The notes below the pieces were generated by a model that saw nothing but the letters and a program-made list of their open reading frames with translations, did not search any database and had not been told where the DNA came from. The position numbers and the translations under genes are program-made. Positions 16,147-55,407 of a DNA stretch of 64,000 bases are shown in pieces (the stretch's first letter is position 1; every line of letters starts with the position of its first letter). The stretch spans positions 747 to 64,746 of the forward strand of contig JAXMHQ010000030.1 of NCBI GenBank assembly GCA_046346665.1, in the 5' to 3' direction. The stretch is from Verrucomicrobiota bacterium. GTDB taxonomy: Bacteria > Verrucomicrobiota > Verrucomicrobiia > Limisphaerales > JAXMHQ01.

Positions 16147-16150
16147 TTCC

Positions 16151-17012: not shown

Positions 17013-17260
17013 AACCACGGATGGACACGGATGGACACGGATAGGGGACGAAGACCTGGACGCGAATTGACGCGAATACTGGGAGGGCCGGCGTCCTCGC
17101 CGGCCCAAACATCCGTTTGACATGGCAAATCCGTCGGAACCCCGAGCGGAACAACTCAGATGGGGACGGCGAGGACGCCGTCCCTCCCAGAGAATTAGCG
17201 GCAATTCGCGTTAATTCGCGTCAAAGTCTTATCCGTGTTCATCCGTGTCCATCCGTGGTT
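17013..17260. repeat. Nested palindrome B - L - A ... A' - L' - B'
   Basis: AACCACGGATGGACACGGATGGACACGGAT (17013) pairs with ATCCGTGTTCATCCGTGTCCATCCGTGGTT (17231). GACGCGAATTGACGCGAAT pairs with ATTCGCGTTAATTCGCGTC. GGGAGGGCCGGCGTCCTCGCCGGCCC (17081) pairs with GGGGACGGCGAGGACGCCGTCCCTCCC (17162). Confidence 0.9.
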
Positions 17261-17307
17261 AAATTTAAACAAAACGAAACGCGGCCAGCGTCCTCTAATT
17301 GACCGAG

Positions 17308-20182: not shown

Positions 20183-20547
20183 AAGGCAGAATGTAGAATG
20201 CAGAGAGTGGCCGCGCGCCTCTCTTGATAGGTATGGTGCGCTATCGGCGGTTGGGTGAAGGCAGGTGTCGCTCTTACGGGGCTGCAAACAGGCCGCTCCT
20301 ACGGAGTTCAGGATGATGCGGATGGGGATGCTACAAAAATGCCGCGCCTGCGGCGCTGGGCCTGGGCCCCGCGATCTCACGATCGCGGCTACGCCGATTG
20401 AGTAGGAGACGACGTAAGGAGTCTCTGACTGGAGTTCGGACGGGAATCGTGAGACTCGTTACCTCGTCTCCTACAGGAGGGGTCCGCGATCTGACGATCG
20501 CGGCTACGGCGCTTTCATTCCGCACTCCCCACTCCTCATTCCGCACT
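20183..20547. repeat. Repeat-dense intergenic region (modules E, F, an inverted pair, F, E-variant)
   Basis: AAGGCAGAATGTAGAATGCAGAG (20183). CCGCGATCTCACGATCGCGGCTACG (20368). GTAGGAGACGACGTAAGGAGTCTC pairs with GAGACTCGTTACCTCGTCTCCTAC (20402/20451). TCCGCGATCTGACGATCGCGGCTACG (20482). CATTCCGCACTCCCCACTCCTCATTCCGCACT (20516). Confidence 0.8.
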
Positions 20548-25187: not shown

Positions 25188-27368
25188 ATGCAAGCAGCAG
25201 CGGACAAACCCAAGTCGGTCAATTCTCCGAACCGCCCCTACGCAATGGAGCGGACGCGGAACATTGGCATCGCGGCGCACATCGACGCCGGCAAAACCAC
25301 CACCACCGAACGCATCCTGTTTTACACGGGGCTCATTCACAAGATGGGCGACGTGGACGACGGCAACACGGTGACGGACTGGATGGAGCAGGAGCGCGAG
25401 CGCGGCATCACCATCACGTCCGCCGCCACCACGTGTTACTGGACGCAGAAGGAGGACGGCACCTACAAGTCGTTCCTGAGCGTGCCCCACCGCGTCAACA
25501 TCATCGACACTCCCGGCCACGTGGATTTCACGGCGGAAGTCGAGCGTTCGATGCGCGTGCTGGACGGCGCTGTCGCCGTGTTCTGCGGCGTCGCCGGCGT
25601 GCAGCCGCAATCCGAAACGGTCTGGCGCCAGGCCACCAAGTACCGCGTCCCCCGCATCGCGTTCGTCAACAAGATGGACCGCACGGGCGCGAATTTTGAA
25701 AATGCGCTGAACGACATGCGCAAGAAACTGGGCGCCTACGCCTACCCGGTTTACCTGCCGATCGGCAAGGAAGACTATCTCACGGGCGTCATCGACGTCG
25801 TGAACCAGAAGGCGATCGTTTACGATCCGAATGACGAGTCGGGAATCAAGTACCAGGTCACCGAAATCCCGGCCGAGCTGAAGGAATCCGCCGCCGCCGC
25901 CCTGGCGGAGCTGATCGATGCGGTCTCCAACAAGGACGACACCATCGCCGAGCTGGTGATCGACAACAAGCCGGTTTCCCCGCAGGTCCTCAAGGCCGCC
26001 ATCCGCCGGCTCACCATCAAGATCGAATTCATCCCCGTCCTGTGCGGATCGGCGTTCAAGAAAAAAGGCGTCCAGCCGCTGGTGGACGCGGTCATCGATT
26101 ATTTGCCGTCGCCCCTCGACGTTCCCCCGGCGACCGGCGAAGACCCGCACAATCCCGAGACCAAGATCGAGGCGCTCTCGGACGACAACGGCAAGTTCTG
26201 CTCGCTGGCGTTCAAGCTGTGGACCGATCCCTACGTCGGCAAGCTCGTCTTCTTCCGCACTTACAGCGGCCAGTTGAAGAAGGGCGACACCATTTACAAT
26301 CCGCGCACCCGCAAGCGCGAGCGCGTCAGCCGCGTCATGATGATCCAGGCCGACAAGCGCATCGACGTGGACACGGTGTATGCGGGCGACATCGCGGCGC
26401 TGGTGGGGTTGAGAAACATCACCACGGGCGACACGCTGTGCGACGAGGAATTTGAAATCACGCTGGAACCGCCGACGTTCCCCGAGCCGGTCATCTCGAT
26501 GGCCGTGGAGCCGAAGACCAAGGCGGACCGCGAAAAGATGAGCGAAGGCCTGCAGCGCCTCGCCGAGGAAGACCCGACCTTCCGGTGCTTCACGAACGAG
26601 GAAACCGGACAGTTGATCATCGCGGGCATGGGCGAACTGCACCTGGAAATCATCCGGGACCGGCTGTTCCGCGAATTCAAGGTGGAAGCCAACGCCGGCG
26701 CGCCCCAGATTGCCTATCGTGAAACGATCACCAAAGGCGCGGAAGGCGAAGGCAAATTCATCCGCCAATCGGGTGGCCGCGGCCAATACGGCCACGCCTG
26801 CATCCGGATCATGCCCAACGAAAAGGGCAAGGGCGTGGAGGTCGAGAACAAGATCGTCGGCGGCGCCATTCCCAAGGAATACATCCCGGCCGTCATCGAC
26901 GGTGTCGAGGAAGCCATCAAGGGCGGCGTGCTCGCCGGCTACCAGATGATCGACGTGAAAGTCGAGGTCACGGACGGCACGTTCCATGAAGTCGATTCGA
27001 ACGAACTGGCGTTCAAGATGGCCGGCATTTTCGCGTTCAAGGACGCGGCCAAGAAGGCCGGCATGATCCTGCTCGAACCGATCATGAAGGTGGAAGTGAC
27101 GACGCCGGACGAATACCAGGGCGACCTGCTCGGCGACATCAACCGCCGCCGCGGCACGATCGTGGGCATCGAGGCCAAGTCCGGCCAGACGATCCTGAAC
27201 TCTCACGTGCCGCTCTCCGAAATGTTCGGTTACGCCACCGCGATCCGGTCACTGTCGAAGGGCCGTGCGTCGTATTCGATGGAGCCGTTCAGTTTCGAAC
27301 AGGTGCCGAGGAGCATCCTCGACACGATCCTGGACCAGGCGGCGAAGAAACCCGCCGCCCGGAGCTGA
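25188..27368 (+). CDS. fusA: Translation elongation factor G
   Basis: AHIDAGKTTTTERIL (G1), DTPGHVDF (G3), NKMDR (G4). Full length. The start could instead be the ATG at 25245. Confidence 0.95.
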   Translation: MQAAADKPKSVNSPNRPYAMERTRNIGIAAHIDAGKTTTTERILFYTGLIHKMGDVDDGNTVTDWMEQERERGITITSAATTCYWTQKEDGTYKSFLSVPHRVNIIDTPGHVDFTAEVERSMRVLDGAVAVFCGVAGVQPQSETVWRQATKYRVPRIAFVNKMDRTGANFENALNDMRKKLGAYAYPVYLPIGKEDYLTGVIDVVNQKAIVYDPNDESGIKYQVTEIPAELKESAAAALAELIDAVSNKDDTIAELVIDNKPVSPQVLKAAIRRLTIKIEFIPVLCGSAFKKKGVQPLVDAVIDYLPSPLDVPPATGEDPHNPETKIEALSDDNGKFCSLAFKLWTDPYVGKLVFFRTYSGQLKKGDTIYNPRTRKRERVSRVMMIQADKRIDVDTVYAGDIAALVGLRNITTGDTLCDEEFEITLEPPTFPEPVISMAVEPKTKADREKMSEGLQRLAEEDPTFRCFTNEETGQLIIAGMGELHLEIIRDRLFREFKVEANAGAPQIAYRETITKGAEGEGKFIRQSGGRGQYGHACIRIMPNEKGKGVEVENKIVGGAIPKEYIPAVIDGVEEAIKGGVLAGYQMIDVKVEVTDGTFHEVDSNELAFKMAGIFAFKDAAKKAGMILLEPIMKVEVTTPDEYQGDLLGDINRRRGTIVGIEAKSGQTILNSHVPLSEMFGYATAIRSLSKGRASYSMEPFSFEQVPRSILDTILDQAAKKPAARS

Positions 27369-27391
27369 GATCGCAGTTTTATTTCGTGTGC

Positions 27392-27426
27392 AAAATCCGC
27401 CGGTTCACGCCGGCGGATTTTTTTCT
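27392..27426 (+). terminator. Rho-independent terminator after fusA
   Basis: ATCCGCCGG, loop ttcacg, CCGGCGGAT, then a T8 run. Confidence 0.8.
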
Positions 27427-27433
27427 TCTGAAT

Positions 27434-27587
27434 GGAGTGGTGGAGTGGTGGAGTGGTGGAGTGATCGGCAGCGTCGTAATCGACCTCGAGATCAAAGGGA
27501 CCAGCGACCAAAAGGACATAAGTGACTCAAGGGACCAAAGGGACCGGTCCCATTCAATACTCCGGAACTCCTGCACTCCAATACTCC
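27434..27587. repeat. Octamer-array imperfect hairpin (GGAGTGGT)n ... (ACTCC-rich)
   Basis: GGAGTGGTGGAGTGGTGGAGTGGTGGAGTG on the left; CATTCAATACTCCGGAACTCCTGCACTCCAATACTCC on the right. The centre carries GGGACC repeats and GGGACCGGTCCC. Confidence 0.65.
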
Positions 27588-27597
27588 GTTTCGGGCA

Positions 27598-28816
27598 CAG
27601 GGCTCACGCATTAAAAGATTTTTGAAGGAGGGACGATTTTTGTCTGTACTTTGTAAATACAATGCGTACATGAGGCGGGATGCAAAAGCATCCAAAGTTG
27701 AGTTTGATCACGATTCTGAAAGAAGTGCCGGACCCGCGAATGGATCGGCGCAAACTGCACGCGTTACCTGACGTGCTGAGTATTGCCATCTGCGCGCTGC
27801 TGTGTGGGGCCGATAGTTTTGAGGACATGGAGGTTTTTGGGGAAGCAAAGTCGGAGTGGTTCGAGAGCTTTCTGGAGCTGCGCCACGGCATTCCCAGTCA
27901 CGATACGTTCAACCGGGTGTTTGCGGCGATGGATCCGGAGAAGTTTCTGGAGTGCTTCATGCGCTGGACGCAGAGTCTGCGAGCGGCCGTGGCGCAGGAG
28001 ATCGTAGCGCTGGATGGCAAAGCACTGAGGCGGGCGATCAACAAGGGGGATTGCCCCAAAGTGGTGATCAGTGCTTGGGCGGCAGACAACGGTCTGGCGT
28101 TGGGTCAACTCAAGGTCGATGACAAGAGCAACGAGATTCGGGCGGTGCCCAAGCTGTTGCGAGCCTTGGAACTGAGCGGATGCATTGTGACGCTGGATGC
28201 GATGGGCTGCCAAAAAGAGATAGCCAAGGAAATCAAAGAAGCCGATGCCGATTACGTTTTGGCGCTCAAAGGCAACCAGGGGCAGACGCACCAAGAGGTC
28301 AAAAGCTATTTGGATGACGCTATCAGCCGCCAGGCCAAGGAACTGGCTTACGCGGAAGTCGTGGACAAAGGGCACGGGCGCCTGGAGGTGCGGCGTTATT
28401 GGCAAAGCGGCCGGCTTGATTGGTTTGAGGATCGAGAGGCTTGGGAGGGTTTACAGAGCGTGGGTGTGGTCGAAGCAGTGCGCGAGATTGGGGGGCAGCG
28501 TACGGTGGAGCGGCGCTATTATCTGAGCAGCTTGAGTCTGGACGTGAATCGGTTCGCCCGTGCCATCCGCAGCCATTGGAGCATCGAGAACCAGTTGCAC
28601 TGGGTTTTGGACGTCAATTTTAACGAAGACCAAAGCCGGGCGCGCAGCGGCTACGCGTCCGAGAACCTAGCGACATTGCGCCGTTGGGCGCTGAATCTCA
28701 TCAAAACCGATACGCAGAAGAAAAAGCGCAGTTTGAAGGGCCGAATGAAGGCCGCTGGCTGGGACAACCGATATTTGCTCCATCTCCTGGGCTTAGATTT
28801 TAATGCGTGAGCCCTG
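27598..28816 (+). mobile_element. ISAs1-family insertion sequence, apparently intact
   Basis: 19-bp perfect terminal inverted repeats CAGGGCTCACGCATTAAAA (27598-27616 and the complement of 28798-28816). Flanked by a direct repeat GTTTCGGGCA (27588-27597 and 28817-28826). Visibly lower G+C than the flanks. One transposase ORF. Confidence 0.85.
27680..28810 (+). CDS. ISAs1-family transposase (H-repeat-associated, DDE)
   Basis: N-terminal L..V.DPR...RKLHALPDVLSIAICALLCGADSFEDME.FG and ...VALDGKALR..., ...TLDAMGCQKEIA..I....ADYVLALKGNQ.... The stop lies inside the right inverted repeat. Confidence 0.85.
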   Translation: MQKHPKLSLITILKEVPDPRMDRRKLHALPDVLSIAICALLCGADSFEDMEVFGEAKSEWFESFLELRHGIPSHDTFNRVFAAMDPEKFLECFMRWTQSLRAAVAQEIVALDGKALRRAINKGDCPKVVISAWAADNGLALGQLKVDDKSNEIRAVPKLLRALELSGCIVTLDAMGCQKEIAKEIKEADADYVLALKGNQGQTHQEVKSYLDDAISRQAKELAYAEVVDKGHGRLEVRRYWQSGRLDWFEDREAWEGLQSVGVVEAVREIGGQRTVERRYYLSSLSLDVNRFARAIRSHWSIENQLHWVLDVNFNEDQSRARSGYASENLATLRRWALNLIKTDTQKKKRSLKGRMKAAGWDNRYLLHLLGLDFNA

Positions 28817-29430: not shown

Positions 29431-29610
29431 GGGAGGGCCGGCGTCCTCGCCGGCCCCAATATCCGTTTGATGCGATATGCCGACGCAAGCGGTGCGCGAA
29501 GCGGATCAGATGGGGACGGCGGGGACGCCGTCCCTCCCGGTCTCTGGCGAGGGCTCGACGGAGTCTCGCCCCACCTTTGTCCCTTGATGATCCGTGTCAT
29601 CCGCGGTTAA
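29431..29610. repeat. Family-A 108-bp element followed by C' and B' half-modules
   Basis: GGGAGGGCCGGCGTCCTCGCCGGCCC...GGGGACGGCGGGGACGCCGTCCCTCCC (29431-29538; same termini as 17081-17188, different core). Then GAGGGCTCGACGGAGTCTCGCCCCACC and GATCCGTGTCATCCGCGGTTAA. Confidence 0.85.
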
Positions 29611-31842: not shown

Positions 31843-31849
31843 TTTGTAA

Positions 31850-31950
31850 CGCAGGCCGCCTGGCCTGCCGTATCGCCGACCGCCGGTCGGCGCTGCCGCG
31901 CAACGACGCGGGCTGGGCAGCCTGCGACACGGCGGGCCAGGCGGCCTGCG
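31850..31950. repeat. 16-bp perfect inverted repeat pair with an internal palindrome
   Basis: CGCAGGCCGCCTGGCC (31850-31865) pairs with GGCCAGGCGGCCTGCG (31935-31950). The inner palindrome is CGCCGACCGCCGGTCGGCG. Confidence 0.75.
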
Positions 31951-32007
31951 CTACAGGGCGCGCGCGACTCTTGCCATCTCCGGCGCCGGGTTCTGGTGGC
32001 TCCGCGC

Positions 32008-38121: not shown

Positions 38122-38259
38122 CGCGGAATGCGCCATTCCGCACTCCGCATTCCGCACTTGAAGGTGGGGCGAGACTCCGTCGAGCCCTCTCTGAGATTTC
38201 AAATTTGAAATTTGAGATTTCACATCTAAAGTCAGGGCTCGACGGAGTCTCGCCCCACC
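38122..38259. repeat. Module string E - C - D - C'
   Basis: GCGGAATGCGCCATTCCGCACTCCGCATTCCGCACT. Then AAGGTGGGGCGAGACTCCGTCGAGCCC. Then TGAGATTTCAAATTTGAAATTTGAGATTTCAC. Then AGGGCTCGACGGAGTCTCGCCCCACC. Confidence 0.9.
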
Positions 38260-39772: not shown

Positions 39773-39832
39773 GCCGCCTCCGCGGCGTCATGCTGTCCTC
39801 TTGAACCCGTCCGCCTTTGTCTGCATGGCTAA

Positions 39833-39998
39833 GGATGAATGGATTCCTGGATCAATGGATAAATGGGGGGACTGACGCGCGGAATCATCCATCAATCCAT
39901 CAATCCATTGATCCAACAATCCTCACGGCTCCGGTCAGGGCTCGACGGAGTCTCGCCCCACCTTGAATCCGTGTCCATCCGTGTCCATCCGTGGTTAA
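39833..39998. repeat. Family-G hairpin + C' + B' half-modules
   Basis: GATGAATGGATTCCTGGATCAATGGATAAATGGGGGG...ATCCATCAATCCATCAATCCATTGATCCAACAATCC. Then CAGGGCTCGACGGAGTCTCGCCCCACC. Then AATCCGTGTCCATCCGTGTCCATCCGTGGTTAA. Confidence 0.85.
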
Positions 39999-41421: not shown

Positions 41422-41535
41422 GAATTGTTTTCATGCTAATCCACAACTCTGAGAAACGATCAGGATTCATTCGGGGTGGGGATGGCTTTCATTAAAGCTT
41501 TGACCAAATCGCATGCAATTGCTAAAGAAGGGCTC

Positions 41536-44500
41536 ATGCATCCGTGGAGGCGAGATTCTTCTTATTCGCGCTGGCTGTATCTCCTTTTGTTCTGCTTTGG
41601 GCTCGGACGACCGGGGTCGGCGGAAATTCTGCCGGGCGCGGTGCATGGCTGGGGACAATACGTTACGAACGGCAGGCCTGTGGGGCTTGGGGACGTGATT
41701 GATGTCAAGGCGGCTTACCGTTATTCCGCCGCGTTAAGGGCAAACGGCACGGTGGCCATATGGGGTGACGACAGTTCCGGCCGGCCCGTCGCGCCTGCGA
41801 ACGCGACGAACGTGACCGCGATCTCGGCGGGTTCTTCAATGGTCATGGCTCTGATGTCGGACGGCCGCGTCCAGGTCTGGGGAAATCCCAATTACGTGGA
41901 TGCCGGAACTCTGACCAATGTTCCGGCCGGTGCGACCAATGTGATCGCCGTCGCGGCCGGGACGGATCATTGCCTGGCGTTGAGAGGGGACGGAACTTTG
42001 GTGGCTTGGGGGAGCAATTTCTGGAGTAACTGGGGACAGACGGACGTGCCGGCGGCGGCCACCAACGTCTCCCTGATAGCGGCGGGGGAATCCTATAACC
42101 TGGTCCGCAGGTTGGACGGTTATCTCATGGCTTGGGGCGACACGAATCACTATGGACCAATTCCGGCGAATGCGACCAACCTGACGGCCCTGGCACTGGG
42201 TCCGTATGGAAACGTGCTGGCCTTGAAACCGGACGGCACGGTGCTCGCCTGGGGCAACAGCCCCTCAGGACAGACCAATCTTCCCGCTGGCTTGACGAAC
42301 GTGGTTTCGATCGCTTGCGGCGATTCGCATTGCGCAGCCTTGCGCGCGGATGGAACCCTGGTGCTCTGGGGAGGGAACAGTTACGGCCAGACGACAATTC
42401 CGACCAACCTCTTCCGGTTCCGGGCCGTTGCGTGCGGGGCCAAACACACCGTGGCCATGAGCGGCGCGCCGCTCGTGGACGGCATCGCTCCCGAGGAACA
42501 GGGCGTGCTGGCCGGCGATCCGGCGATGTTCCAGGCCTCTGTCGCGTCAACCGATCCCTGGGCCGGTCAATGGTTCAAGGACGGCGTGCCCATCGCCGCC
42601 ACCAACGCGCTGCTCACGTTGTCCGACCCGCAGTCGGCCGATTCCGGCGAGTATACGTTCACCGCCACCAACCAGTTTGGATTCACCGTGAGCGACTTTG
42701 CGTACTTGGGCGTCAACGGATCGGCCGTGCGATGGGTGGCCCAGCCATCCAACCAGGCAGCTTTGCCGGGACAACCCGCCTCCTTTACCGCGACGGTGGC
42801 CGGGTCCGAGCCGATGCGATACCAGTGGCTGCACAACGGTGCTCCCATCCCGGGCGCCACGAATGGTACCCTGTTGATTCCGTCCGTGGCGCCTGCGGAT
42901 GAAGGGACCTATACGGTGACGGTCACGAATGTTCTTGGCGGAGTCGTCAGCGCCCCGCGTTATCTCGCGGTCACCCTTCCATTTTTCCTGACAGCGCCTT
43001 CGGACATTCGCGCGCGGACAAACTGGGATGTCTCGATCACGACCGGCGTGCTGAGCCCGACGCCGGTGAGTTACGCCTGGTACAAGGACGGGGTGCAGCT
43101 CACGAATGAAACCGGTCCCAGCCTGCGCTTTGCATCCTTGCAGGAAAGCGACGCCGCGGATTATGTCCTGGTGGCTGCCAACGACGCAGGGTCGGTCACT
43201 AATCCTCCGGTGCATGTCACGGTGCTTCCGAGTTACATTGTCCCCGCCGAACCCGGCGTGGTGGTGAACTGGGGAAATATCACGCCTTACGCAAATTACA
43301 CAGCTCTTAAGAATGCCACGAATGCCGTTTCCATCGGAACCGGCTTATGGCATCTGCTGGCCTCGTGGCCGGACGGCACGGTCAGCATTTGGGGCGACCC
43401 GTCTGACTTGACGCTCATGAGCATACCGCCGGAGACGACCAACGTGGTCAGTGTCATTGGCGGTCAGCATTACAGCCTGGCGATTCGCCGGGATGGCACG
43501 ACCGTGGTCTGGGGCGTGCCGCCGTTCAGCGCAGGTGCGCCGGTGCCGACCACGACGAATGTGATGTCGGCCGCCCTCGGGCCGAATCATATCATGTACC
43601 TGCGGCGGGACGGCTCGGTCATGAGTTTTCCGTATGTCACGCCGCCCAATGTGACAAACATCGTGGCGGTGGGCGCGACCGATTTCTACTCGTTTGCGCT
43701 GCGGGCGGACGGCCGGATTTTGATCTGGCTGGCCTATCAGAATGTGAATACCAACGGGCCTCCGGCGGCGGAGCTGCCGGGCGTGACGAATGCCGTGAGC
43801 GTAACGGGGGGGGAGAACTACAGGGTGGCCGCTCTCCTGAAGGACGGCGGCGCCATTACGATTGCCGTTGCCACGGGCTCCCAGTCCTGGACCCCGATGG
43901 CGGGCATCAGCAACGCAGTGCAAGTCGCTGCCGGCCGCGGTTATGCCGCGCTGCTGGCCACGGGAGAAGTGTCGGCGGGGGGCGATTCGAGCATTCTCCC
44001 GGTGCCGAACGGGTTGCGGGCGCACCAGATTTCCGGTGGTCTGCTGCAGGTCGCGGCGCTGACGGTCGCGCCGTTTTTTGACGTGCAGCCCCAGTCTCAA
44101 ACGCTCTCCGCCGGGAGTGCCATGACGTTGTCCCCGATCGTCCGCAGTGCGTCAGCCTGCTCGTTTCAATGGTATTACCAGGGCAATCCGGTTCCGAACG
44201 CCACCAACAGTCTCTTCAGCCTGGCGCAAGTCCGCCCGAGCCAGGGAGGCACCTACCAGCTTCTCGCCACCAACCCGCGCGCCCAGACCTGGAGCGTGCC
44301 GGCAACGATTACTGTTCAGGGACTGGCGGAGATCCTGACACTGTCCAGCAACCAGTTCCTGCTGGCCGGCGACACGCTGAACCTGGGAGCAACTTATGTG
44401 GCGAATCCAAGTGCCAGCCTGCAATGGAAGTTCAACAATTTTTCAATCCTGGGGGCTACCAATGCCACCCTCACGCTCACCGGCATGACCGAGGCCATGA

Positions 44501-46617
44501 GCGGGAACTTCACCCTGTGCCTTTCCAACAGCTTCGGCATCGTGACCAGCCCTATCATCCAGGTAACCGTGTCTCCATCCGGTCCGCGGATCGTGACGCA
44601 GCCCTCCCCGCCTCCCCCCTTGCCGGACGGTTCTTCGCTGCAATTACAGGTGCAGGCCGTCGGTTCCCAGCCGCTGGCTTATCAATGGTATTGGAACAAC
44701 ACCCTGATTCCCGGCCAGACCCAGGCCGTGCTCCAAATCCCATCAGTGTCCGCCGCCAGCGACGGCACCTACAAAGTGCAGGTTTCCAACAGCGTCGCCG
44801 CTGCCGTTTTCAGCGATCCAGTCCTGGTCACCACGCTGCGCACGGGGCCGTCGCCGGTCATCGCGACAGGGAATCTGCTGGCGCGGTTGGGCCGGCCGCT
44901 CCGGCTGGAAGCGAAGGTCGGCGGAACGGCGGGCTCCGTGATTCAGTGGCGGTTTAAAGGTGCCGATGTGCCCGGAGAAACCAATCCAGTCCTGTCCATC
45001 GCCGCGGCCGGGTTCACCAATGCCGGTGTTTACACCGTTCACGCGGTGAATGGATATGGATCCGCGGATTCGGACGCCGTCCAGGTCCGCGTGCTGCCGA
45101 ATCCGGGTCCGGGCCTGGTGAAGAGCTGGGGATCTGTCACGGGCACTCCGACGAACCTGCTGGCGGACATGGTGGTGAACGGGTATTCGCACGGGCTCGC
45201 ACTGCTGCCTGAGGGGACGGTGCAGGCCTGGGGCAACAATACTTACCGCCAGGCCACCGTTCCGGCAGGACTCTCGAACGTGGTCGCGATCGCCGCGGGC
45301 GATTATTTCAGTCTTGCGCTGAAATCCGACGGCACGGTGACCGGCTGGGGACAGAACAGTTCCGGCCAGGCCACGCCGCCTCCGGGCCTGAGCAATGTTG
45401 TAGCCATCTCGGGCGGCACCTATCACGCGCTGGCGTTGAAGGCGGATGGTTCCGTGGTGGCCTGGGGAAATTCCGGTTACACCCAGGTGCCCGCAGGACT
45501 GCCGCCGGCGAGCGCAATCCAGGCCGGGATCAGTTACAGCCTGGCGCTCATGACCAACGGCCAGATCGCAGCCTGGGGCATTTCGGGCAGCCAGACCAAT
45601 GTCCCCGCTTCGGCGACCAACATCGTGGCAATCGCTGTCGCTTACGGCGGCGGATGCGGACTGAACAGCAGCGGCCTGACGGTGCCCTGGGCGTCGTTCC
45701 CCACGCCTTCCGCGAGCGCGACGAATCTCACCTCGATCGCTGCGGGTTACTCCCATGCGTTGGGGCTGACGGCCGACAGGCACATCGTCGCGTGGGGATC
45801 GGACACGTATGCCCAGACGCGTGGCGCGAATGGAGCCTCCAACATTCTGGCCATTTCCGCATGGGAATACACAACGGTGGCGTTGTCCGGCCAACCCGTC
45901 ATCCTGGCTTCGCCGACCAACCAGTCCGTGGGCCAGGATTGGCCGCTGACACTTCAGGTTGCAGGGCGCGGAACGCCGCCGTTGTTCTACCAGTGGTATT
46001 TCAACAGCCAGCCGCTGGCGGGCGCGACCAACGCCACGTTCACCCTGCCCGCATTCCAGTCCGCCAATGCCGGCGCCTACACGGTGGAAGTGAGCAATCC
46101 GTATGCTTCCGCCCGGACCAACTTCACGCTGACGCTGGGATCGGCGCCGGCGATTACGACCCAACCGGCGGACCAGGTGGTCACGTTGACCTCCAACGCG
46201 TCGTTCAGTGTGACGGCATCGGGCACGGCACCGATGACTTACCAGTGGTTGTTGAACGGAAACCGGCTCCTGGGCGCGACGGCTTCCTCCCTGACCCTGC
46301 CTTACGTGCTGTTCGAGGACAACGGCCACGTGTCCGTGCTGGTCTCCAATGCCTTCGGATTTGTTTACAGCCGGGATGCCGCCCTTCAAGCCCTCGCTCC
46401 TCCATCCAGGATGCAAATGTCCTCGGATGGAACGAACCTGTATCTCCACCTGGCCGTGCTCCAGCCCGGAGGTTCCTATTGGCTGGCGTCCTCGACGAAC
46501 TTGGTGGACTGGGTGCCGGTCCAGGACTTCACCAGTCCCGGCACCAACCTGGATCTGACCTGGCCCATGACAAATCCGCCGCCGTGCTTCTACCGGCTGC
46601 TGTTCCTGAATCCTTGA
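41536..46617 (+). CDS. Giant secreted protein with RCC1-type beta-propeller repeats and Ig-like domains
   Basis: Signal-like WLYLLLFCFGLGRPGSA. Many AAG..H.LAL..DGTV.AWG repeats in three blocks. Interspersed Ig-like units (YQW..NG..IPGAT...L.I......D.G.Y.V.V.N). Earlier alternative starts at 41476/41482. Confidence 0.75.
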   Translation: MHPWRRDSSYSRWLYLLLFCFGLGRPGSAEILPGAVHGWGQYVTNGRPVGLGDVIDVKAAYRYSAALRANGTVAIWGDDSSGRPVAPANATNVTAISAGSSMVMALMSDGRVQVWGNPNYVDAGTLTNVPAGATNVIAVAAGTDHCLALRGDGTLVAWGSNFWSNWGQTDVPAAATNVSLIAAGESYNLVRRLDGYLMAWGDTNHYGPIPANATNLTALALGPYGNVLALKPDGTVLAWGNSPSGQTNLPAGLTNVVSIACGDSHCAALRADGTLVLWGGNSYGQTTIPTNLFRFRAVACGAKHTVAMSGAPLVDGIAPEEQGVLAGDPAMFQASVASTDPWAGQWFKDGVPIAATNALLTLSDPQSADSGEYTFTATNQFGFTVSDFAYLGVNGSAVRWVAQPSNQAALPGQPASFTATVAGSEPMRYQWLHNGAPIPGATNGTLLIPSVAPADEGTYTVTVTNVLGGVVSAPRYLAVTLPFFLTAPSDIRARTNWDVSITTGVLSPTPVSYAWYKDGVQLTNETGPSLRFASLQESDAADYVLVAANDAGSVTNPPVHVTVLPSYIVPAEPGVVVNWGNITPYANYTALKNATNAVSIGTGLWHLLASWPDGTVSIWGDPSDLTLMSIPPETTNVVSVIGGQHYSLAIRRDGTTVVWGVPPFSAGAPVPTTTNVMSAALGPNHIMYLRRDGSVMSFPYVTPPNVTNIVAVGATDFYSFALRADGRILIWLAYQNVNTNGPPAAELPGVTNAVSVTGGENYRVAALLKDGGAITIAVATGSQSWTPMAGISNAVQVAAGRGYAALLATGEVSAGGDSSILPVPNGLRAHQISGGLLQVAALTVAPFFDVQPQSQTLSAGSAMTLSPIVRSASACSFQWYYQGNPVPNATNSLFSLAQVRPSQGGTYQLLATNPRAQTWSVPATITVQGLAEILTLSSNQFLLAGDTLNLGATYVANPSASLQWKFNNFSILGATNATLTLTGMTEAMSGNFTLCLSNSFGIVTSPIIQVTVSPSGPRIVTQPSPPPPLPDGSSLQLQVQAVGSQPLAYQWYWNNTLIPGQTQAVLQIPSVSAASDGTYKVQVSNSVAAAVFSDPVLVTTLRTGPSPVIATGNLLARLGRPLRLEAKVGGTAGSVIQWRFKGADVPGETNPVLSIAAAGFTNAGVYTVHAVNGYGSADSDAVQVRVLPNPGPGLVKSWGSVTGTPTNLLADMVVNGYSHGLALLPEGTVQAWGNNTYRQATVPAGLSNVVAIAAGDYFSLALKSDGTVTGWGQNSSGQATPPPGLSNVVAISGGTYHALALKADGSVVAWGNSGYTQVPAGLPPASAIQAGISYSLALMTNGQIAAWGISGSQTNVPASATNIVAIAVAYGGGCGLNSSGLTVPWASFPTPSASATNLTSIAAGYSHALGLTADRHIVAWGSDTYAQTRGANGASNILAISAWEYTTVALSGQPVILASPTNQSVGQDWPLTLQVAGRGTPPLFYQWYFNSQPLAGATNATFTLPAFQSANAGAYTVEVSNPYASARTNFTLTLGSAPAITTQPADQVVTLTSNASFSVTASGTAPMTYQWLLNGNRLLGATASSLTLPYVLFEDNGHVSVLVSNAFGFVYSRDAALQALAPPSRMQMSSDGTNLYLHLAVLQPGGSYWLASSTNLVDWVPVQDFTSPGTNLDLTWPMTNPPPCFYRLLFLNP

Positions 46618-46627
46618 ATCGACTCTT

Positions 46628-49573
46628 ATGCGCTTCACATTGCGTGCCGTTTCGATGCTGACGGGAGGTTTCCTGGTTGCAGCCGCGGCGCCGCGCGCCG
46701 GCGCGGCGGAGATTGCCGCCCAATGGATTCTCCCGGCCAATACCACCTGGTTCAACGGTTCCTGGTATGATGCGACCAATTGGCTGAACGGGATTGTGCC
46801 CGTCACCAATTCTGGAAACTCCTACGCGGTCACCATCAACACCCAGCCGCCGCCAAACAGTTACGTGCAATGTTCGCTGGACGGCGACATGACGGTGAGC
46901 CGCCTGACGCTGGGGGATGTTCTATATACCTACAACAGCACCAACAGCGTGGTCAGTTACTCTCGCAGGCAATTCCGGATTCAGAATGAATTTCACTGGG
47001 TGGGTGGATCCTTGGACGGTTTTGTTACCGATTACCATCTGTACGGTCCGGCCTATTTTGAAGGCAACACTCAGAAGTCGCTCGATGGGGAATGCAATCT
47101 TCACATTCATGATCACGCCACGTGGCTTGATGGCACCCTCGCCTGGAAGCAATACGGCAGCGTGATCATCTATGCCGGCGCCGTGTTGGATATGAATGTG
47201 GGCGGGGTCGTCGGGACCTCGGCCAGCACGGATTCGGCGAGCATCACCAACCTGGGAACGATGCGCATGAATGCCGCGGGCCAGACCGCCACGTTTTACG
47301 GTCAGACGCTCAACACAGGGTTGCTGGACATCCAGGCGGGTGATGTTCAGTTTCAGTATGGTTTTCAGTCAGGTGGCAACATTCACATAGCGGGCGGATC
47401 CAAATTGCTGGTGAGCCGGAACGGTTCATGGAAGCCGTTCACCTTCACGGGGGACGGGGAAATCGACATGGTGGATGGCCAGAACATCGTCCAGGATATC
47501 ACCGTTCCGTGCTTTCTTCGGATCGCGGGAGATGTTGTAGGCGCTGGGCTGACGGTTCGCAACGGGCTTTGGGGAGGCGGCCAGCTCAGCGGGCCCGGTC
47601 TGCTCACCATCCAATCCGGCGGATTGTTCGTCATTTCGAACACCACCCCGTTTCTCAATCGGAATATCAACAACCTCGGCACTCTCCGGCTCCTGCCGGG
47701 CAGCAGTCTGTCGGGGTATTCGTCTGCCGCCCTCACCAATGCCGCCTCCGGCACGATGCAATTGAGCGGCGGCTCGGCCCAGTATTCCGTCCAGTTGATC
47801 AATGCAGGGCAGATTCTCAAGAACGACGGGAGCGCCGGGTCTTTTTCATTCAACAACTGGGTTCAAAACGACGGCTCCGCCCTGTGCACGGCCGGGGCAT
47901 TGAATTTTGCCGGGGGCGGCACCAATACCGGCGTCATGACCGCGCAAAGCGCCGGGTCCATCGTGGCGCAGGGGATTGATTTCGGGGATTCGTCTCAATT
48001 GGCGGGAGATGGCTCCATGACCCTTGCCGGCTGCACCCTGCGCGGTTCCGTGAGCCCGGACCTCGCCATGACCCTCAATTCCGTGCGCGTCTACAGCAAC
48101 CAAACCTATTCGTTCAAGTCCCTTCAGGTGGGATCGTGGATCACTTTCCCCACCAACTGGGGAGCGGACGTGATTTCGGGCCTGAAATTGAACGGCAGCC
48201 TCTGGGTCGGAAATCTGCGGAGCCTGTCGACAGCCGAACTATCCTTCGCAAATTCGTCTTTGCTGCCACCGGCGACGCTGGACCTGGCGGGCCAGTCGGC
48301 CTGGATCGCCGGGGCGTTAACAGTTCAATCCTCCAACTCGGTGTTCATCAACCGCGGCAATCTTCGCGTCGAAAGCGCCGGTGGCTTAGCGGCTCCTGCA
48401 GGCGGCCTCTTCGTCAACCAGGGAACGTGCGTGTTTAGCCGGCAAATCGAAAACGTCACGGCCGCATTGGACAAGCTGTCCTTTCAATGGAACATCACGA
48501 ATATTTCCGGCAATCCTACCCTGGACAACGGACCGTGCCAGATTTCCGGCCCCGTCACCGCCGCAGCCCAGTATCTCACCGCCGGCCCGGGCGCGAACAT
48601 CGTTTTCAATTACTTCGGAGCCACTAACGCAACAGTGAGCCTGACACAGAGTTCCCTCCAGGCAATCACCTCACTGGCCTGCTCCAATGTGACCCTCGTC
48701 CTCGATCGTTCCACCGTCATCAGCCCGCCGCAGCCGTGGGTGGGCTCCGCGACCCTCTCCGGCAACGGCAGTCTTGACGGTCTGTTGTCCGTCCAGACTC
48801 TTCAATTGTCCGCCGTCGCCGGCTCGAACGGCCTGGCGCTCAACGGAGCCCTGGGCTTCACCGGCGCAAATCCCGTGCTCCGGGTCACGGCGCTTTCATC
48901 CAATAATGCTTCCATCTTCCCCCGGCTCGCCGTTCACGGACCCGTCCTGCTCGCCGGAAAGCTCGACCTCGCGATCCCATTTCTCCCGAGCGGATCCAAT
49001 TTCATCGCGGGACCTCTGACGTTGCTCGAATCCGATCAACCCCTGGCCGGCGGCTTCACCAACCTGGCCAGCGGAGCCACCGTGAATCTCACCAACGGCT
49101 GGCGCTGCCAGGTCTACTTCGGGCCGGACAGCCCCTATGGATCCTCCAACGTCGTCCTGTGCTCGCTCGGCTCCGCCTTCGATCAATGGCGCATGCAGAA
49201 GTTCACTGCCGAGGAATTGGCAAACCCGCAGGTCTCAAGCCCCGCGGCCGACCCGGACGGGAACGGATACAGCAATATCGCCGAATACGTGCTGGCCATC
49301 GATTCCACCGGCGCGGTCCCCACCTTGGCTCCGGGCATCGACGGCTACACCCGCATTTACCTGGAACGGCGAAAAGATATCGGCAACCTGCAGCCCTACC
49401 TCGCCGTTTCGACCGATCTGCGCGCGTGGGCTTCTGTCCTGCTGGGATCCACCAGCTCGTCCCTGAACCTTCACCGGGCTTACGACTTCGGCGACCACTA
49501 CCAATACGAGTACCTCTATTTTGGAACCCCCCCACAGCTCTTTCTGAAAGTCAGCGTTTCCGGACAACCTTAA
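46628..49573 (+). CDS. Large secreted protein, PATR-like (autotransporter-associated beta-strand repeat style)
   Basis: Signal peptide. N-terminal W.....W....NW..G.VP opening typical of PATR proteins. Gly/Ser/Asn-rich beta-strand repeats. C-terminal DPDGNGYSNIAEY motif. Starts 10 nt after the preceding gene. Confidence 0.6.
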   Translation: MRFTLRAVSMLTGGFLVAAAAPRAGAAEIAAQWILPANTTWFNGSWYDATNWLNGIVPVTNSGNSYAVTINTQPPPNSYVQCSLDGDMTVSRLTLGDVLYTYNSTNSVVSYSRRQFRIQNEFHWVGGSLDGFVTDYHLYGPAYFEGNTQKSLDGECNLHIHDHATWLDGTLAWKQYGSVIIYAGAVLDMNVGGVVGTSASTDSASITNLGTMRMNAAGQTATFYGQTLNTGLLDIQAGDVQFQYGFQSGGNIHIAGGSKLLVSRNGSWKPFTFTGDGEIDMVDGQNIVQDITVPCFLRIAGDVVGAGLTVRNGLWGGGQLSGPGLLTIQSGGLFVISNTTPFLNRNINNLGTLRLLPGSSLSGYSSAALTNAASGTMQLSGGSAQYSVQLINAGQILKNDGSAGSFSFNNWVQNDGSALCTAGALNFAGGGTNTGVMTAQSAGSIVAQGIDFGDSSQLAGDGSMTLAGCTLRGSVSPDLAMTLNSVRVYSNQTYSFKSLQVGSWITFPTNWGADVISGLKLNGSLWVGNLRSLSTAELSFANSSLLPPATLDLAGQSAWIAGALTVQSSNSVFINRGNLRVESAGGLAAPAGGLFVNQGTCVFSRQIENVTAALDKLSFQWNITNISGNPTLDNGPCQISGPVTAAAQYLTAGPGANIVFNYFGATNATVSLTQSSLQAITSLACSNVTLVLDRSTVISPPQPWVGSATLSGNGSLDGLLSVQTLQLSAVAGSNGLALNGALGFTGANPVLRVTALSSNNASIFPRLAVHGPVLLAGKLDLAIPFLPSGSNFIAGPLTLLESDQPLAGGFTNLASGATVNLTNGWRCQVYFGPDSPYGSSNVVLCSLGSAFDQWRMQKFTAEELANPQVSSPAADPDGNGYSNIAEYVLAIDSTGAVPTLAPGIDGYTRIYLERRKDIGNLQPYLAVSTDLRAWASVLLGSTSSSLNLHRAYDFGDHYQYEYLYFGTPPQLFLKVSVSGQP

Positions 49574-49588: not shown

Positions 49589-50119
49589 CTAGAATTGATC
49601 TTCCTTTTCCCGGAACAGCACGTTGAACGTGGTCAGGGAACCGTAGCAGCGCGTGATGTATTGCTGCATCTCCACCTTGTCGCCGTCGCTCAGCCCCTCG
49701 TGCGCGTTCACTTTCTGTTCCAGGACCCGGAGCTGGTTTCGCACCATGACGATCTTGTGGAAGAAAACTTCCATGGGGATTTCCTTGGTTTGCAGCGCGG
49801 GATCGGACGGATGCAGCACCGCCCGGCCTTTCAGCCAGCGCGATCCGAGCTGCGACACCACCGCGTCCGGCTGCTGGATTCCGAGCCGGTCGAGTGTCCG
49901 GGCGACGGATTCCTCGATGAGCTGTTTGAGCGGCATGTTTAATCCGGCCAACTGCGCCCGTGCCTCCGCCGGCTCCAGACCGGCCGCCTCCGGCGCCACC
50001 GCCCGCCGGCCCTCCGCAAATTGAATCTCCGCGGTCGTTTCCCCGATCGATTTGACCGTCCCGTTGCCATACTGCGGGTGTCGCACTTCCATGCCGATAT
50101 GCAGCGCCTCGATTTTCAT
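49589..50119 (-). CDS. Conserved hypothetical protein
   Basis: Normal composition. N-terminal HPQYGNGTV Tudor-like motif. C-terminal [18 protein letters not shown]...[11 protein letters not shown]. An alternative start exists at 50158. Confidence 0.5.
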
Positions 50120-50172
50120 GAATACAATATCCGACGAAAACCGGGGATCGAAAATCAAATTCCTTGAGTTTT

Positions 50173-50498
50173 AACCACGGATAGACACGGATGAACACGG
50201 ACCAGGAAAGGCAGGGCTTTGACGCGAATTAGCGCGAATTGGGACGAATTTCAGGTGGGGCGAGACTCCGTCGAGCTCCTGACGGTGTAGGAGGATTGTT
50301 GGATGAATGGATTTATGGATTATTGGATGGCTTCCGCGCGAGGGTCTTCCGATTTATCCAGGAATTCAATGATCCAATAATCCATATTTTTGAGGGGCTC
50401 GACGGAGTCTCGCCCCACCTTGAAACGGAACCATTAGCGTCAAATCGCGTCAAAGCTACTCTCCTCCAATCCGTGTCCATCCGTGTCCATCCGTGGTT
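50173..50498. repeat. 326-bp nested palindrome B - L - C - G/G' - C' - L' - B'
   Basis: AACCACGGATAGACACGGATGAACACGG (50173) pairs with AATCCGTGTCCATCCGTGTCCATCCGTGGTT (50468). GACGCGAATTAGCGCGAATT pairs with GCGTCAAATCGCGTC. AGGTGGGGCGAGACTCCGTCGAGC (50253) pairs with GGGGCTCGACGGAGTCTCGCCCCACCT (50394). The central TGGATT/AATCCA hairpin spans 50290-50385. Confidence 0.9.
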
Positions 50499-50562
50499 CA
50501 AAATCCGCCGTCCTTTTTGATTGCCCAGCGGACGGGCGCGGGACCATAGTGCGATAGATTCG

Positions 50563-51216
50563 ATGGGCGCGAAAAAACTGGATCGCTTCGAGCATGAAAC
50601 CCGGCTGTGGCAGGCCGGGACGGGAGTGCTTGCGGGCGTCGATGAAGCGGGGCGCGGCCCGCTGGCCGGCCCGGTGGTCGCGGCCGCCGTTGTGCTGCCG
50701 CGAACCTGGATGGAATCCGGGATCGATCCCCGGCTCGGGGAGTTGAACGATTCCAAGCAGCTCACGGAACTTCAACGCGAGGAAATTTTCGCCATCCTGG
50801 TGAGCCACCCGGAGATCCGGTTCGCCGTGGCCGCGGTGGATGTGGACGAGATTGATCGCATCAACATTCTCCAGGCCACGCACCGGGCGATGAACCTGGC
50901 ACTGTCGCAACTGTCGCCCGCGCCGGAGCACGTTCTGGTGGACGGATTGCCGGTGCGCTCCTTGCAGTTTCCGCAGACCGCGCTGGTACAGGGCGACGCG
51001 CGGAGTTATTCGATCGCCGCTGCCAGCGTGGTTGCAAAAGTCACGCGGGACCGGCGCATGATGGAATACCACGCCGAATTTCCGGGATACGGATTCGATT
51101 CGCACAAGGGTTACGGCACTCCGCAACACCTGGAAAGCATCCGGAAACTGGGGCCGTGCCGGATTCACCGTCGCAGCTTCGCGCCGTTGCGGCCCGTCGA
51201 GCGGGAGTTGTTTTAG
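50563..51216 (+). CDS. rnhB: Ribonuclease HII
   Basis: GVDEAGRGPLAGPVVAAAVVL active-site motif and ...DSKQL....R.... Confidence 0.9.
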   Translation: MGAKKLDRFEHETRLWQAGTGVLAGVDEAGRGPLAGPVVAAAVVLPRTWMESGIDPRLGELNDSKQLTELQREEIFAILVSHPEIRFAVAAVDVDEIDRINILQATHRAMNLALSQLSPAPEHVLVDGLPVRSLQFPQTALVQGDARSYSIAAASVVAKVTRDRRMMEYHAEFPGYGFDSHKGYGTPQHLESIRKLGPCRIHRRSFAPLRPVERELF

Positions 51217-55339: not shown

Positions 55340-55407
55340 GTAGCCGCGATTGTCAAATCGCGGAGGGTTGAACTGAAAAGGGACCGCGATCTCACGATCG
55401 CGGCTAC
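55340..55407. repeat. Family-F pair in inverted orientation
   Basis: GTAGCCGCGATTGTCAAATCGCGG ... CCGCGATCTCACGATCGCGGCTAC. Confidence 0.8.

Follow-up and report, generated by a model that had tools for sequence, protein, structure and literature searches.

An intergenic palindrome at positions 50169-50502 of the window (the whole 64-kb stretch of DNA analysed here) is made up of four inverted-repeat layers, nested in the order B > L > C > G from the outside in, and we consider it probably a mosaic of non-coding, selfish intergenic repeats that arose through successive insertions into loops and spacers, rather than one purpose-built structure. Mosaics of selfish repeats are a known kind of element; the nesting is what is unusual. 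The modules fall into two classes: C and A are REPs, and B, L and G (together with E, H and T) are arms of three to four tandem units of 7-10 nt. Module C is linked to a RAYT gene, B-type arrays are physically associated with GxxExxY genes and E arrays with four-helix-bundle (4HB) genes; the tandem-repeat class and its GxxExxY link appear to be undescribed. The palindrome would provide a natural example of hairpins from separate families entering one another's loops, and the 26-nt residual spacer gives a measurable signature of filled and empty sites that bears on target choice by REPIN-type elements.

Anatomy of the palindrome and distribution of its modules

The preliminary description of this DNA had claimed four nested inverted repeats in a 326-bp palindrome (50173-50498), and all four were found where it had placed them (Table 1). 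The in silico folding it had suggested yielded, for a 340-nt stretch, one long imperfect RNA hairpin of -198.3 kcal/mol, against -105 ± 5.4 for shuffled sequences (z = -17), and a DNA fold of -103.7 kcal/mol (z = -14.5). Complementarity of the arms gives no age gradient, running 82, 96, 83 and 89% from the inner to the outer layer, which is not monotonic. The flanking ATGs lie 49 nt and 60 nt away and the genes are divergent, so the palindrome occupies a divergent promoter region and not a gene 3' end, and it may affect both flanking promoters. It has been described as lying between two divergent housekeeping genes; the left one has no Pfam or NCBIfam match. A T-run precedes the palindrome and an A-run follows it. 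No promoter-like sites were found at the palindrome, Rfam covariance models gave no match to it even at E <= 1, and a tRNA is the sole Rfam match within the window. An intrinsic (rho-independent) terminator was rejected, since no terminator-like site overlaps the palindrome and it stands between two gene starts.

Table 1. Layers of the palindrome, related repeats and neighbouring genes in the 64-kb window
Feature	Position	Strand	Description
B arms	50166-50201 / 50470-50505		36 nt, 89% complementary; trimmed 50169-50201 / 50470-50502, 33 nt, 91%
L arms	50216-50239 / 50433-50456		24 nt, 83% complementary
C arms	50253-50280 / 50393-50420		28 nt, 96% complementary
G arms	50307-50328 / 50364-50385		22 nt, 82% complementary; perfect core 15 nt
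Module B left arm, outermost layer	50169-50201	+	head TTTTAACC and three 10-nt units (CACGGATAGA CACGGATGAA CACGGA)
Module B' right arm	50470-50502	+	TCCGTGTCCATCCGTGTCCATCCGTGGTTCAAA; pairing partner of 50169-50201
Module L left arm, second layer	50216-50250	+	GCTTTGACGCGAATTAGCGCGAATTGGGACGAATT; 10-11-nt units, core CGCGAAT
Module L' right arm	50422-50456	+	GAAACGGAACCATTAGCGTCAAATCGCGTCAAAGC; degenerate innermost unit; 83% complementary
Module C left arm, third layer	50253-50280	+	REP monomer AGGTGGGGCGAGACTCCGTCGAGCTCCT, GTGG head
Module C', REPIN right arm	50393-50420	+	28 nt, 96% complementary
REPIN spacer, left remainder	50281-50292	+	
Module G element, innermost hairpin	50293-50386	+	arms of four ~8-nt units, core TGGAT; loop 50329-50355
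Multi-layer composite 2	17010-17263	+	B [ L [ A-type REP dimer 17079-17190 ] L' ] B'; interior fold z = -8.3
Two-layer case	38163-38259	+	C REPIN with empty E-type 7-mer hairpin in its spacer
Lone B hairpin	13297-13391		
Stand-alone G hairpins	7737-7810, 11767-11840, 39833-39922		loop sequence common to two
GTAG-headed dimers	20402, 31845, 55340		
One-armed series	39832-39993		G G' C' B'
One-armed series	29513-29610		A C' B'
L-then-B tandem	7129-7215		
4HB (23S-rRNA-IVS-type) cassette	15547-16150	-	gene 15549-16052(-); PF05635 4e-23, TIGR02436 2e-21
Module E arms	15547-15590 and 16110-16150		(AGATTTG)x5 and (CAAATCT)x5; inverted 7-mer tandems bracketing the 4HB gene
Left flanking gene	49589-50119	-	probable ATG at 50119, 49 nt from B arm
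Right flanking gene, RNase HII (rnhB)	50563-51216	+	PF01351, 1.8e-43; ATG 60 nt from B' arm

The module positions listed in the preliminary description were correct, and the over-representation it had asserted is borne out by the window counts (matches found and expected by chance: 19 and 0.00 for B, 7 and 0.01 for C, 17 and 0.00 for G, 4 and 0.06 for L), with L being rare, confined to two loci and one L-like arm at 7129. Its further claim of a consistent nesting order holds for both multi-layer composites and for the two-layer case; these are few, and there are exceptions, with B enclosed by another inverted repeat (L026/L101, L056) and L preceding B at 7129-7215. Of the B and C arms in the fetched loci, roughly half stand alone. 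All five solo B arms of the window aim at a downstream gene start, a pattern that does not extend to 77 solo arms of other genomes; these split 18 to 15 at gene starts and 29 to 18 at gene ends, which is no clear bias, and an orientation rule was rejected.

REP layers, empty sites and a proposed order of insertion

The preliminary description knew of no described family, which is wrong for C and A, both of REP/REPIN type. A single C arm folds on itself (a stem of 5+3 bp interrupted by a GA/GA internal loop; -11.4 to -11.7 kcal/mol), as does an A arm (10-bp stem, -21.7 kcal/mol), and both fit the 5-13 bp stem expected of a REP monomer; the arms of B, G and L form no such fold by themselves, a B arm reaching -1.0 kcal/mol. 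Metagenomes hold at least 120 stretches of C, and among 165 copies the head is GTGG in 85, GTAG in 58 and GGAG in 15; C copies in the window carry GTGG, and A heads read ATAG or GTTG. All 7 C arms of the window (0.01 expected in 64 kb) are intergenic, and they include inverted doublets, namely the REPINs at 38163-38259 and 50253-50420, the latter a head-to-head dimer of the two C arms of the palindrome. The search for RAYT-type transposases that had been proposed earlier paid off outside the window, in the metagenome contig L177, where an ORF between C arms (319-852, minus strand) matches NF047646, REP-associated tyrosine transposase (E = 4.3e-17), at 62 bits, below the 80-bit equivalog cut-off, and carries the HLH motif.

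These properties agree with published REP/REPIN-RAYT systems (Nunvar 2010, PMC2817692; Bertels & Rainey 2011, PMC3116915; Di Nocera 2013, PMC3733652), in which GC-rich, GTAG-tagged stem-loop monomers are extragenic and over-represented, occur as short-spacer head-to-head dimers and as solo arms, and, as in L177, flank a RAYT-like gene; the GTAG tag itself is seen in part of the C copies. REP dimers fold into long hairpins, of which singlets are remnants (PMC3116915), the PVC superphylum is rich in GTAG REPs (PMC3733652), and both mosaic intergenic regions and REP dimers inside longer palindromes have been described (PMC3733652, PMC3116915, PMC2817692). The palindrome departs from such systems in that its head is GTGG and not GTAG, the REPIN spacer holds the hairpin of another family, the REPIN is enclosed by two non-REP layers and the window contains no RAYT gene.

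That the modules are independent units, occurring alone and in other combinations, had also been proposed, and every layer is indeed found empty somewhere. Other genomes contain at least about 70 B hairpins besides the lone one in the window, L hairpins stand alone with ~30-nt loops in one MAG locus (L122), and the fetched loci hold 51 C...C' hairpins with spacers mostly of 26-32 nt (modal). In the palindrome the C spacer is 120 nt; subtraction of the 94-nt G element leaves 26 nt, a modal value for C dimers, composed of 50281-50292, 50387-50392 and, where the C pattern stops short of the ends of the arms, a further 4+4 nt. The interiors of B...B' pairs are strongly structured in 10 of 43 cases, and the flanks pair in 2 of 43.

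On this evidence, the order of events that we infer would run as follows. A REPIN of two inverted C copies, mobilised by a RAYT (HUH/Y1) acting on single-stranded hairpins, would have come to occupy the loop of an L hairpin, itself placed between B arms, and the G hairpin, with arms of 8-nt tandem units, would have inserted into the 26-nt REPIN spacer; L and B are members of the second class, each arm consisting of an AACC-type head followed by three tandem ~10-nt units. Loops may be favoured because they become single-stranded upon hairpin extrusion and single-stranded DNA is the substrate of RAYT/IS200-type enzymes, and insertions there may survive because the outer stem is left intact and already non-functional DNA is undisturbed. 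No transposase of any type, RAYT, GxxExxY gene or integrase is encoded in the 64-kb window, so mobility in this genome is presumed by the scheme. Successive insertion into loops, as first suggested in the preliminary description, predicts the empty layers and the residual spacer. Pure loop insertion does not predict the one-armed series or the solo arms, which make up about half, and for these later half-loss or self-spreading arms would be needed. The sequence B then L, within 15-20 nt in both window composites, recurs twice in an unrelated MAG (L122), so B+L may be one compound element instead of two insertions.

The last observation also speaks for a different account, in which the whole palindrome would be one composite, MITE-like element in which long compound terminal inverted repeats (B+L+C) enclose a small core, the entire unit being copied by an unknown transposase. 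A MAG labelled Planctomycetaceae, a kind of label that is unreliable for MAGs, carries at three loci, at ~95% identity, a composite of outer inverted repeat, B, loop, B' and outer inverted repeat, and the one-armed series match the module order of the palindrome's right arm. No clear target-site duplication borders the three aligned copies of that composite or the window copies. We regard this account as unlikely: a search of the window and of 2.2 Mb of fetched loci turned up no other B-L-C-G combination, composite 2 has A in place of C and lacks G, every layer is found alone, C has a transposase type of its own and what remains of the C spacer matches the usual length exactly.

Retention of the repeats for their usefulness to the host seems just as improbable. 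The arms might then be, for instance, protein-binding arrays (10-bp periodic, on one helix face) serving as an insulator of supercoiling or transcription between the two divergent promoters, or an RNA that is stabilising or processed by RNase III. The position close to two divergent start codons would suit such a role, as would a B core kept across phyla behind variable linkers of 2-3 nt and a phage-like contig whose B arms all share one orientation and are mostly solo; B units at gene starts contain the SD and ATG, so that pairing with B' could gate translation, and there is precedent in BIMEs, which bind IHF and gyrase, and in IVS stems, which are RNase III sites (PMC2817692, PMC4990558). 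Against it, hairpins of these families occupy convergent, divergent and co-directional gaps, even within ribosomal-protein operons, solo arms follow no orientation rule relative to genes, module content varies between loci, and the palindrome shows no Rfam match, promoter-like site or terminator tail. The closest RNase HII relatives (68-74% identical) have non-syntenic upstream regions without such an element, some of them almost hairpin-free.

A chimeric fold-back join of repeat-rich reads, a concern in an uncultured, metagenome-assembled contig because repeats and palindromes are hard to assemble, is highly improbable, since an artefact would yield a perfect palindrome and every layer is imperfect (arms 82-96% complementary), the flanks are two different intact genes, similar composites were met with in independent assemblies and finished replicons of cultured strains contain tandem-repeat hairpins.

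Tandem-repeat arrays beside GxxExxY and 4HB genes

Module B is present in many phyla and in viral contigs. In five MAG loci (L025, L047, L124, L125, L127), B-type arrays flank genes of the GxxExxY (PD-(D/E)XK) type, and tandem ~10-mer arrays lie at the borders of GxxExxY genes in all eight finished replicons examined; a 24.8-kb replicon of B. finegoldii has 10 arrays against 0.4 expected, one pair of which hugs its GxxExxY gene. At the starts of such genes B units supply the SD/ribosome-binding site and the ATG, and 74 of 120 relatives, among the matches listed, have a B-encoded N-terminus. The sampled loci that were not selected for B contain no GxxExxY genes, so the association rests on gene-selected loci and protein termini; a phage genome collection gave no match to GxxExxY. 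The view that empty B hairpins are internal-deletion derivatives of a GxxExxY cassette was rejected: the arms align, and the homology of loop to gene is unconvincing.

Module E brackets a 4HB gene within the window and also ends or flanks the genes of relatives. The cassette occupies a conserved syntenic site in a relative and is thus stable and not recently mobile. It resembles the intervening sequences (IVS) of 23S rRNA, which consist of a stem and a 4HB ORF and replace hairpin tetraloops (PMC4990558). Like the Coxiella IVS, a selfish inverted-repeat stem that may enclose a small 4HB ORF and that inserts where a hairpin loop was (PMC4990558), it has an inverted-repeat stem around a 4HB (S23p) ORF, and its product belongs to the same protein family (PF05635; a relative of PDB 2GSC). 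It differs in being intergenic and in having 7-mer tandem arms, and the palindrome is a stem without an ORF. Neither element lies in a 23S rRNA helix; the window contains no rRNA, and both are located between protein genes.

Taken with the REP-RAYT precedent, these couplings lead us to propose, tentatively, that B, L, H and probably G might serve GxxExxY proteins as their partners in cis, in a counterpart of REPIN-RAYT that uses a small PD-(D/E)XK nuclease in place of the HUH transposase. Each GxxExxY lineage would read its own 7-mer core, repeated one helical turn apart, with the gene enclosed by its own repeats and orphan hairpins scattered in their hundreds through intergenic DNA, in at least seven phyla and some phages, and 4HB (IVS/Avd-like) proteins with 7-mer arms would form a second partner family. 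Arrays bracket the gene in other genomes; by analogy with REP-RAYT, the empty B and L copies of the palindrome could be non-autonomous relatives, moved by such an enzyme, and the window would also carry the 4HB version, as the 23S-IVS-type cassette. In the GxxExxY-partner reading, candidate 7-mer cores are CACGGAT, CACAGAG, CGCGGAT, CGCGAAG and ACAAATC. Reading the units of B and G as CsrA-type A(N)GGA motifs was also considered; L, E and H do not conform to it.

The couplings of ~10-nt tandem arrays to GxxExxY genes and of 7-mer arrays to 4HB genes recur in many phyla, with finished replicons of cultured strains among the cases, and no description of them was found in the searchable literature: queries by sequence or peptide returned unrelated primers only, and those on GxxExxY, TIGR04256 and PF05635 returned passing annotations only. 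A cognate DNA motif beside each gene makes the function of GxxExxY and 4HB proteins directly testable by binding or cleavage of defined oligonucleotides. Both families (GxxExxY and 4HB/IVS) are abundant, and the proposed partnership would, if true, give a first function to two very large 'hypothetical' families and account for how rRNA intervening sequences arose.

Comparison with other repeat systems

MITEs, like the modules, are short and non-coding, have terminal inverted repeats and many copies, and come in gene-bearing and empty versions whose arms are alike; transposable elements typically show nested insertion. The modules differ in that no clear target-site duplication or parent IS with a DDE transposase was identified and that their arms are internally tandem-repetitive. 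No DDE transposase, as expected of an autonomous IS sharing their ends, is present in the window, and gene-bearing versions carry GxxExxY or 4HB instead.

Neisseria and Rhizobium possess intergenic mosaic elements, known as NIME and RIME, respectively. These, and the BIMEs of E. coli, are likewise intergenic mosaics of several short repeat families in alternating orientation. BIMEs are linear REP alternations with conserved linker motifs, reiterated in tandem, and bind IHF, DNA gyrase or Pol I, whereas in the palindrome hairpins of several families are nested concentrically and the dimer is not repeated in tandem.

The heptamer repeats (STRR) of cyanobacteria (Mazel 1990; Elhai 2008; cited in PMC3116915) reportedly consist of tandem 7-nt intergenic units, often in complementary sets, and very small elements are said to be nested in other repeats there. 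They belong to another phylum and differ in sequence, and no description of a link between STRR and GxxExxY or 4HB genes was found.

Integron attC sites have boxes of the form R''-L''...L'-R' (RYYYAAC...GTTRRRY) with extrahelical bases, and accompany a promoterless cassette and IntI. This identity was rejected for the modules: by eye GTTRRRY fits some B' ends (17257, 29607 and 39993) and fails to fit others (13388, 50495), each arm is a near-perfect tandem repeat of 30 nt, the window has no integrase and the gene start lies inside B and not after the site. In PVC and Acidobacteria MAGs, the modules create many spurious ORFs (with peptides such as IRVHPWL and NHGWTRMNTD) and assembly breaks.

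Anatomy of the nested palindrome and its modules

The window segment 50166-50505 is made up of four concentric inverted repeats (B, L, C and G from the outside in; see table), as claimed in the preliminary description. In silico, this 340-nt stretch folds as a single hairpin, at -198 kcal/mol as RNA (-105 +/- 5 in shuffled sequences, z = -17) and at -104 kcal/mol as DNA (z = -14.5). The module positions previously listed elsewhere in the window proved correct, and all four modules are far beyond chance expectation within these 64 kb, with 19 occurrences of B (0.00 expected), 7 of C (0.01), 17 of G (0.00) and 4 of L (0.06).

Coordinates of the palindrome layers, neighboring genes and four-helix-bundle (4HB) gene in the window, and repeats bordering GxxExxY genes in finished replicons
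Feature	Left arm or position	Right arm	Strand	Length	Description
Layer B	50166-50201	50470-50505		36 nt	89% complementarity
Layer L	50216-50239	50433-50456		24 nt	83% complementarity
Layer C	50253-50280	50393-50420		28 nt	96% complementarity
Layer G	50307-50328	50364-50385		22 nt	82% complementarity
Left neighbor	49589-50119		(-)		ORF of unknown function
Right neighbor	50563-51216		(+)		RNase HII
4HB gene	15549-16052		(-)		4HB/23S-rRNA-IVS-type (Avd-like) protein; PF05635 at 4e-23; PDB 2GSC relative
Treponema saccharophilum					Inverted CACACGGAT / ATCCGTGT; sole two core copies within 1.5 kb
Fusobacteria ZRK30					Direct repeats with ATCCGTGT
Bacteroides finegoldii					CACAGAG arms, inverted
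Bernardetia					CACAGAG arms, inverted
Gemmatirosa					CGCGGAT x3, downstream
Prevotella					ACAAATC x3, both sides
Sphingomonas					CGCGAAG x3, extending into ATG
Persicobacter					Upstream array of TAAATCC type

Modules A and C are REPs. Their single arms self-fold (C, -11.7 kcal/mol; A, -21.7 kcal/mol) and bear GTAG-like heads (GTGG in 85 and GTAG in 58 of 165 C arms), and metagenome C copies are, among the matches listed, mostly head-to-head dimers with a 26-32 nt spacer. A search for REP-associated tyrosine transposases (RAYTs), proposed in the preliminary description, found no RAYT, transposase or integrase within the 64-kb window, but did locate a RAYT-like ORF between C arms in metagenome contig L177 (NF047646, E = 4.3e-17; HLH motif present). 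Arm folding, heads, dimers and this ORF identify C...C' as a REPIN as defined in PMC3116915. The PVC superphylum is known to harbor GTAG REPs, and insertion of REP dimers into long palindromic sequences has been reported (PMC3733652); the earlier assertion that no described family is involved therefore fails for layers C and A. Additional GTAG-headed inverted dimers at 20402-20474, 31845-31955 and 55340-55407, with GTAG or GTAA heads outermost, look like extra REPIN families.

The arms of B, L, G, E, H and T comprise instead 3-5 tandem units of 7-10 nt (e.g. CACGGATNNA, CGCGAATNNN, TGGATNNN, AGATTTG, CACAGAGN, TTGCAGG), frequently preceded by a TTAACC-type head, and do not self-fold. An L-like arm headed TTAACC lies at 7129. 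Soil metagenome contigs (L137 2349-2837, L169, L146 and others) carry an abundant ~50-nt module, GGTTCATGG...CCATGAACC, flanking C REPINs, as well as CCCTCTCCCC...GGGGAGAGGG hairpins; both are additional unclassified repeat families.

Layer independence and probable assembly of the stack

Every layer is also found empty, in line with the description of the modules as independent units: B at 13297-13391 and in ~70 further B...B' pairs elsewhere, L as stand-alone hairpins in the fetched locus L122, C as ordinary REPINs, and G at 7737, 11767 and 39833, with a common loop sequence at two of these sites. The C-to-C pattern distance in the palindrome is 120 nt; without the 94-nt G element it would be 26 nt, which is the modal spacer length of REPINs. 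An E hairpin lies in the spacer of the other C REPIN of the window (38163-38259), and another multi-layer composite, B[L[A-dimer]], occupies 17010-17263. Among 43 B...B' pairs with an interior of at least 50 nt, the interior is strongly structured in 10 and the outside flanks pair mutually in 2, while in L137 B arms enclose a C REPIN plus several hairpins side by side; together, these observations support loop insertion, with B tending outermost. The consistent nesting order previously proposed is overstated: multi-layer cases are very few, and B itself lies within another inverted repeat in the fetched loci L026/L101. Roughly half of all B and C arms in the fetched loci are solo; singlets are regarded as dimer remnants in the REPIN literature (PMC3116915), which may account for these and for one-armed series.

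In the most likely reading, the palindrome consists of selfish repeats stacked by putative transposition: a RAYT-type REPIN (C) would hold G in its spacer and itself lie inside an L hairpin, with L between B arms. Loops would be favored because they are single-stranded on extrusion and single-stranded DNA is the substrate of RAYT/IS200-type enzymes, and the outer stem would be spared when insertion hits the loop. A single compound MITE-like unit is less well supported. The whole L026/L101 composite recurs at ~95% identity, indicating that it was copied as a unit, and B followed by L reappears in an unrelated MAG, but the empty occurrences of each layer and the 26-nt residual spacer argue against it. 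Also less well supported is a host-selected insulator or RNA structure. The palindrome fills 326 of the ~440 bp separating two divergent genes and, given their divergent transcription, does not lie 3' of either; searches returned no overlapping promoter-like or terminator-like site and no Rfam family match, and the 44 inverted-repeat pairs of the window, nearly all intergenic, occupy convergent, divergent and co-directional gaps, ribosomal-protein operons included. A fold-back assembly artefact is disfavored by the imperfect arms of all four layers.

B arms and GxxExxY genes

Searching species-representative genomes for AACCACGGATNNACACGGAT returned at least 120 matches, with ~17 chance matches estimated over the whole collection. 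Nearly all those listed continue into a third unit, not demanded by the pattern, and they carry labels of many phyla (MAG labels being not fully reliable) and include one isolate, Asticcacaulis. Predicted viral contigs carry B as well, on 60 stretches. The phage-like contig L258 (IMGVR_UViG_3300031885_000054; 46% GC; DUF3486/Mu-gp27-like ORF, judged by eye) bears at least 14 B-type arms at 2134-8534, on one strand and mostly solo, including a tandem array of 47-nt period; one ORF begins with the module-encoded MNHGLTQINTD. All window B arms (e.g. 50176-50201) have 10-nt units reading ...GGATGA / GGATAG..., and start (ATG) and stop (TGA/TAG/TAA) codons fall in shifting frames within a three-unit arm; these starts and stops, plus read-through, explain recurrent spurious peptides such as NHGWTRMNTD and IRVHPWL in gene calls.

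In Luteolibacter (L025) and Pirellulaceae (L047), a GxxExxY gene of the small PD-(D/E)XK nuclease family (TIGR04256, 4e-36) lies between B and B', its ATG within B. The N-terminus is encoded by B in 74 of the best 120 homologues (MNTD, ...EEPRMNTD) and the C-terminus in 30 of them, and the DNA of loci L124, L125 and L127 reads B (SD + ATG), GxxExxY gene, and 1-4 tandem empty B...B' hairpins. Tandem ~10-nt arrays border the gene in all eight examined cases from finished replicons of cultured organisms (see table). The whole 24.8-kb B. finegoldii replicon contains 10 dispersed arrays versus 0.4 expected, with one pair located at distances of 9 and 27 nt to the gene; numerous orphan copies and one gene-flanking pair constitute the signature that tied REPs to RAYTs. 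Judging from loci selected by gene or by motif and from protein termini, GxxExxY is a candidate mover of B, L and G by association only. The B. finegoldii replicon (L337, 'plasmid 50', typed as plasmid) has only housekeeping-type genes (thrA, thrC, radA, metA, ribBA) and may be a chromosomal fragment; a B-type hairpin (CAGATTACACGGATTAACACAGATTA...) lies at 22235-22303.

The four-helix-bundle cassette and other window repeats

The segment 15547-16150 is an IVS-type cassette outside rRNA, in which inverted arms, (AGATTTG)x5 and (CAAATCT)x5, bracket the 4HB gene. It shares its architecture of stem arms and S23p-type ORF with rRNA intervening sequences, in which a selfish stem and S23p ORF replace a hairpin tetraloop and are excised by RNase III (PMC4990558). 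Among the matches listed, 35 of 120 relatives have a C-terminus of '...SEI*' or 'SQISNLKSQI' and 31 of 120 an internal 7-mer module, which in the DNA of two relatives lies upstream, inside and downstream of the gene. One relative (P0344 contig) has the cassette at the same syntenic site, proC-4HB-HAD-prfA. The intragenic palindromic module, translated as e.g. DFKSQISDLKS, takes up coding positions in two fetched loci (L250 1777-1808; L251 ~1778-1808) and in the window (~15725-15755), a repeat hairpin thus being conserved inside an ORF.

The window belongs to the core chromosome of an uncultured Verrucomicrobiota bacterium and encodes an AddAB-like nuclease/helicase, RsmB, RF-1, proC, YidC, rnpA, ribosomal proteins, EF-G/EF-Tu, nuo genes and one tRNA. 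Repeat hairpins fall within the str/S10 ribosomal-protein gene region at 27368-27680 and 29431-29610; the EF-G/EF-Tu gap contains GGAGTGGT-type arms and a terminator-like hairpin (~27390-27425), and upstream of rpsJ an A dimer precedes single C' and B' arms (29431-29610). At 7013-7300, two direct B copies, each followed by a GAACAGGAGGTAGCAGAGGCAGCAGAGG module, have one inverted partner in common (7263-7295), an arrangement that is tandem and not nested. Two very large adjoining ORFs span 41476-49573, the first (1713 aa) with RCC1 and immunoglobulin-like repeats and the second (981 aa) with no Pfam match.
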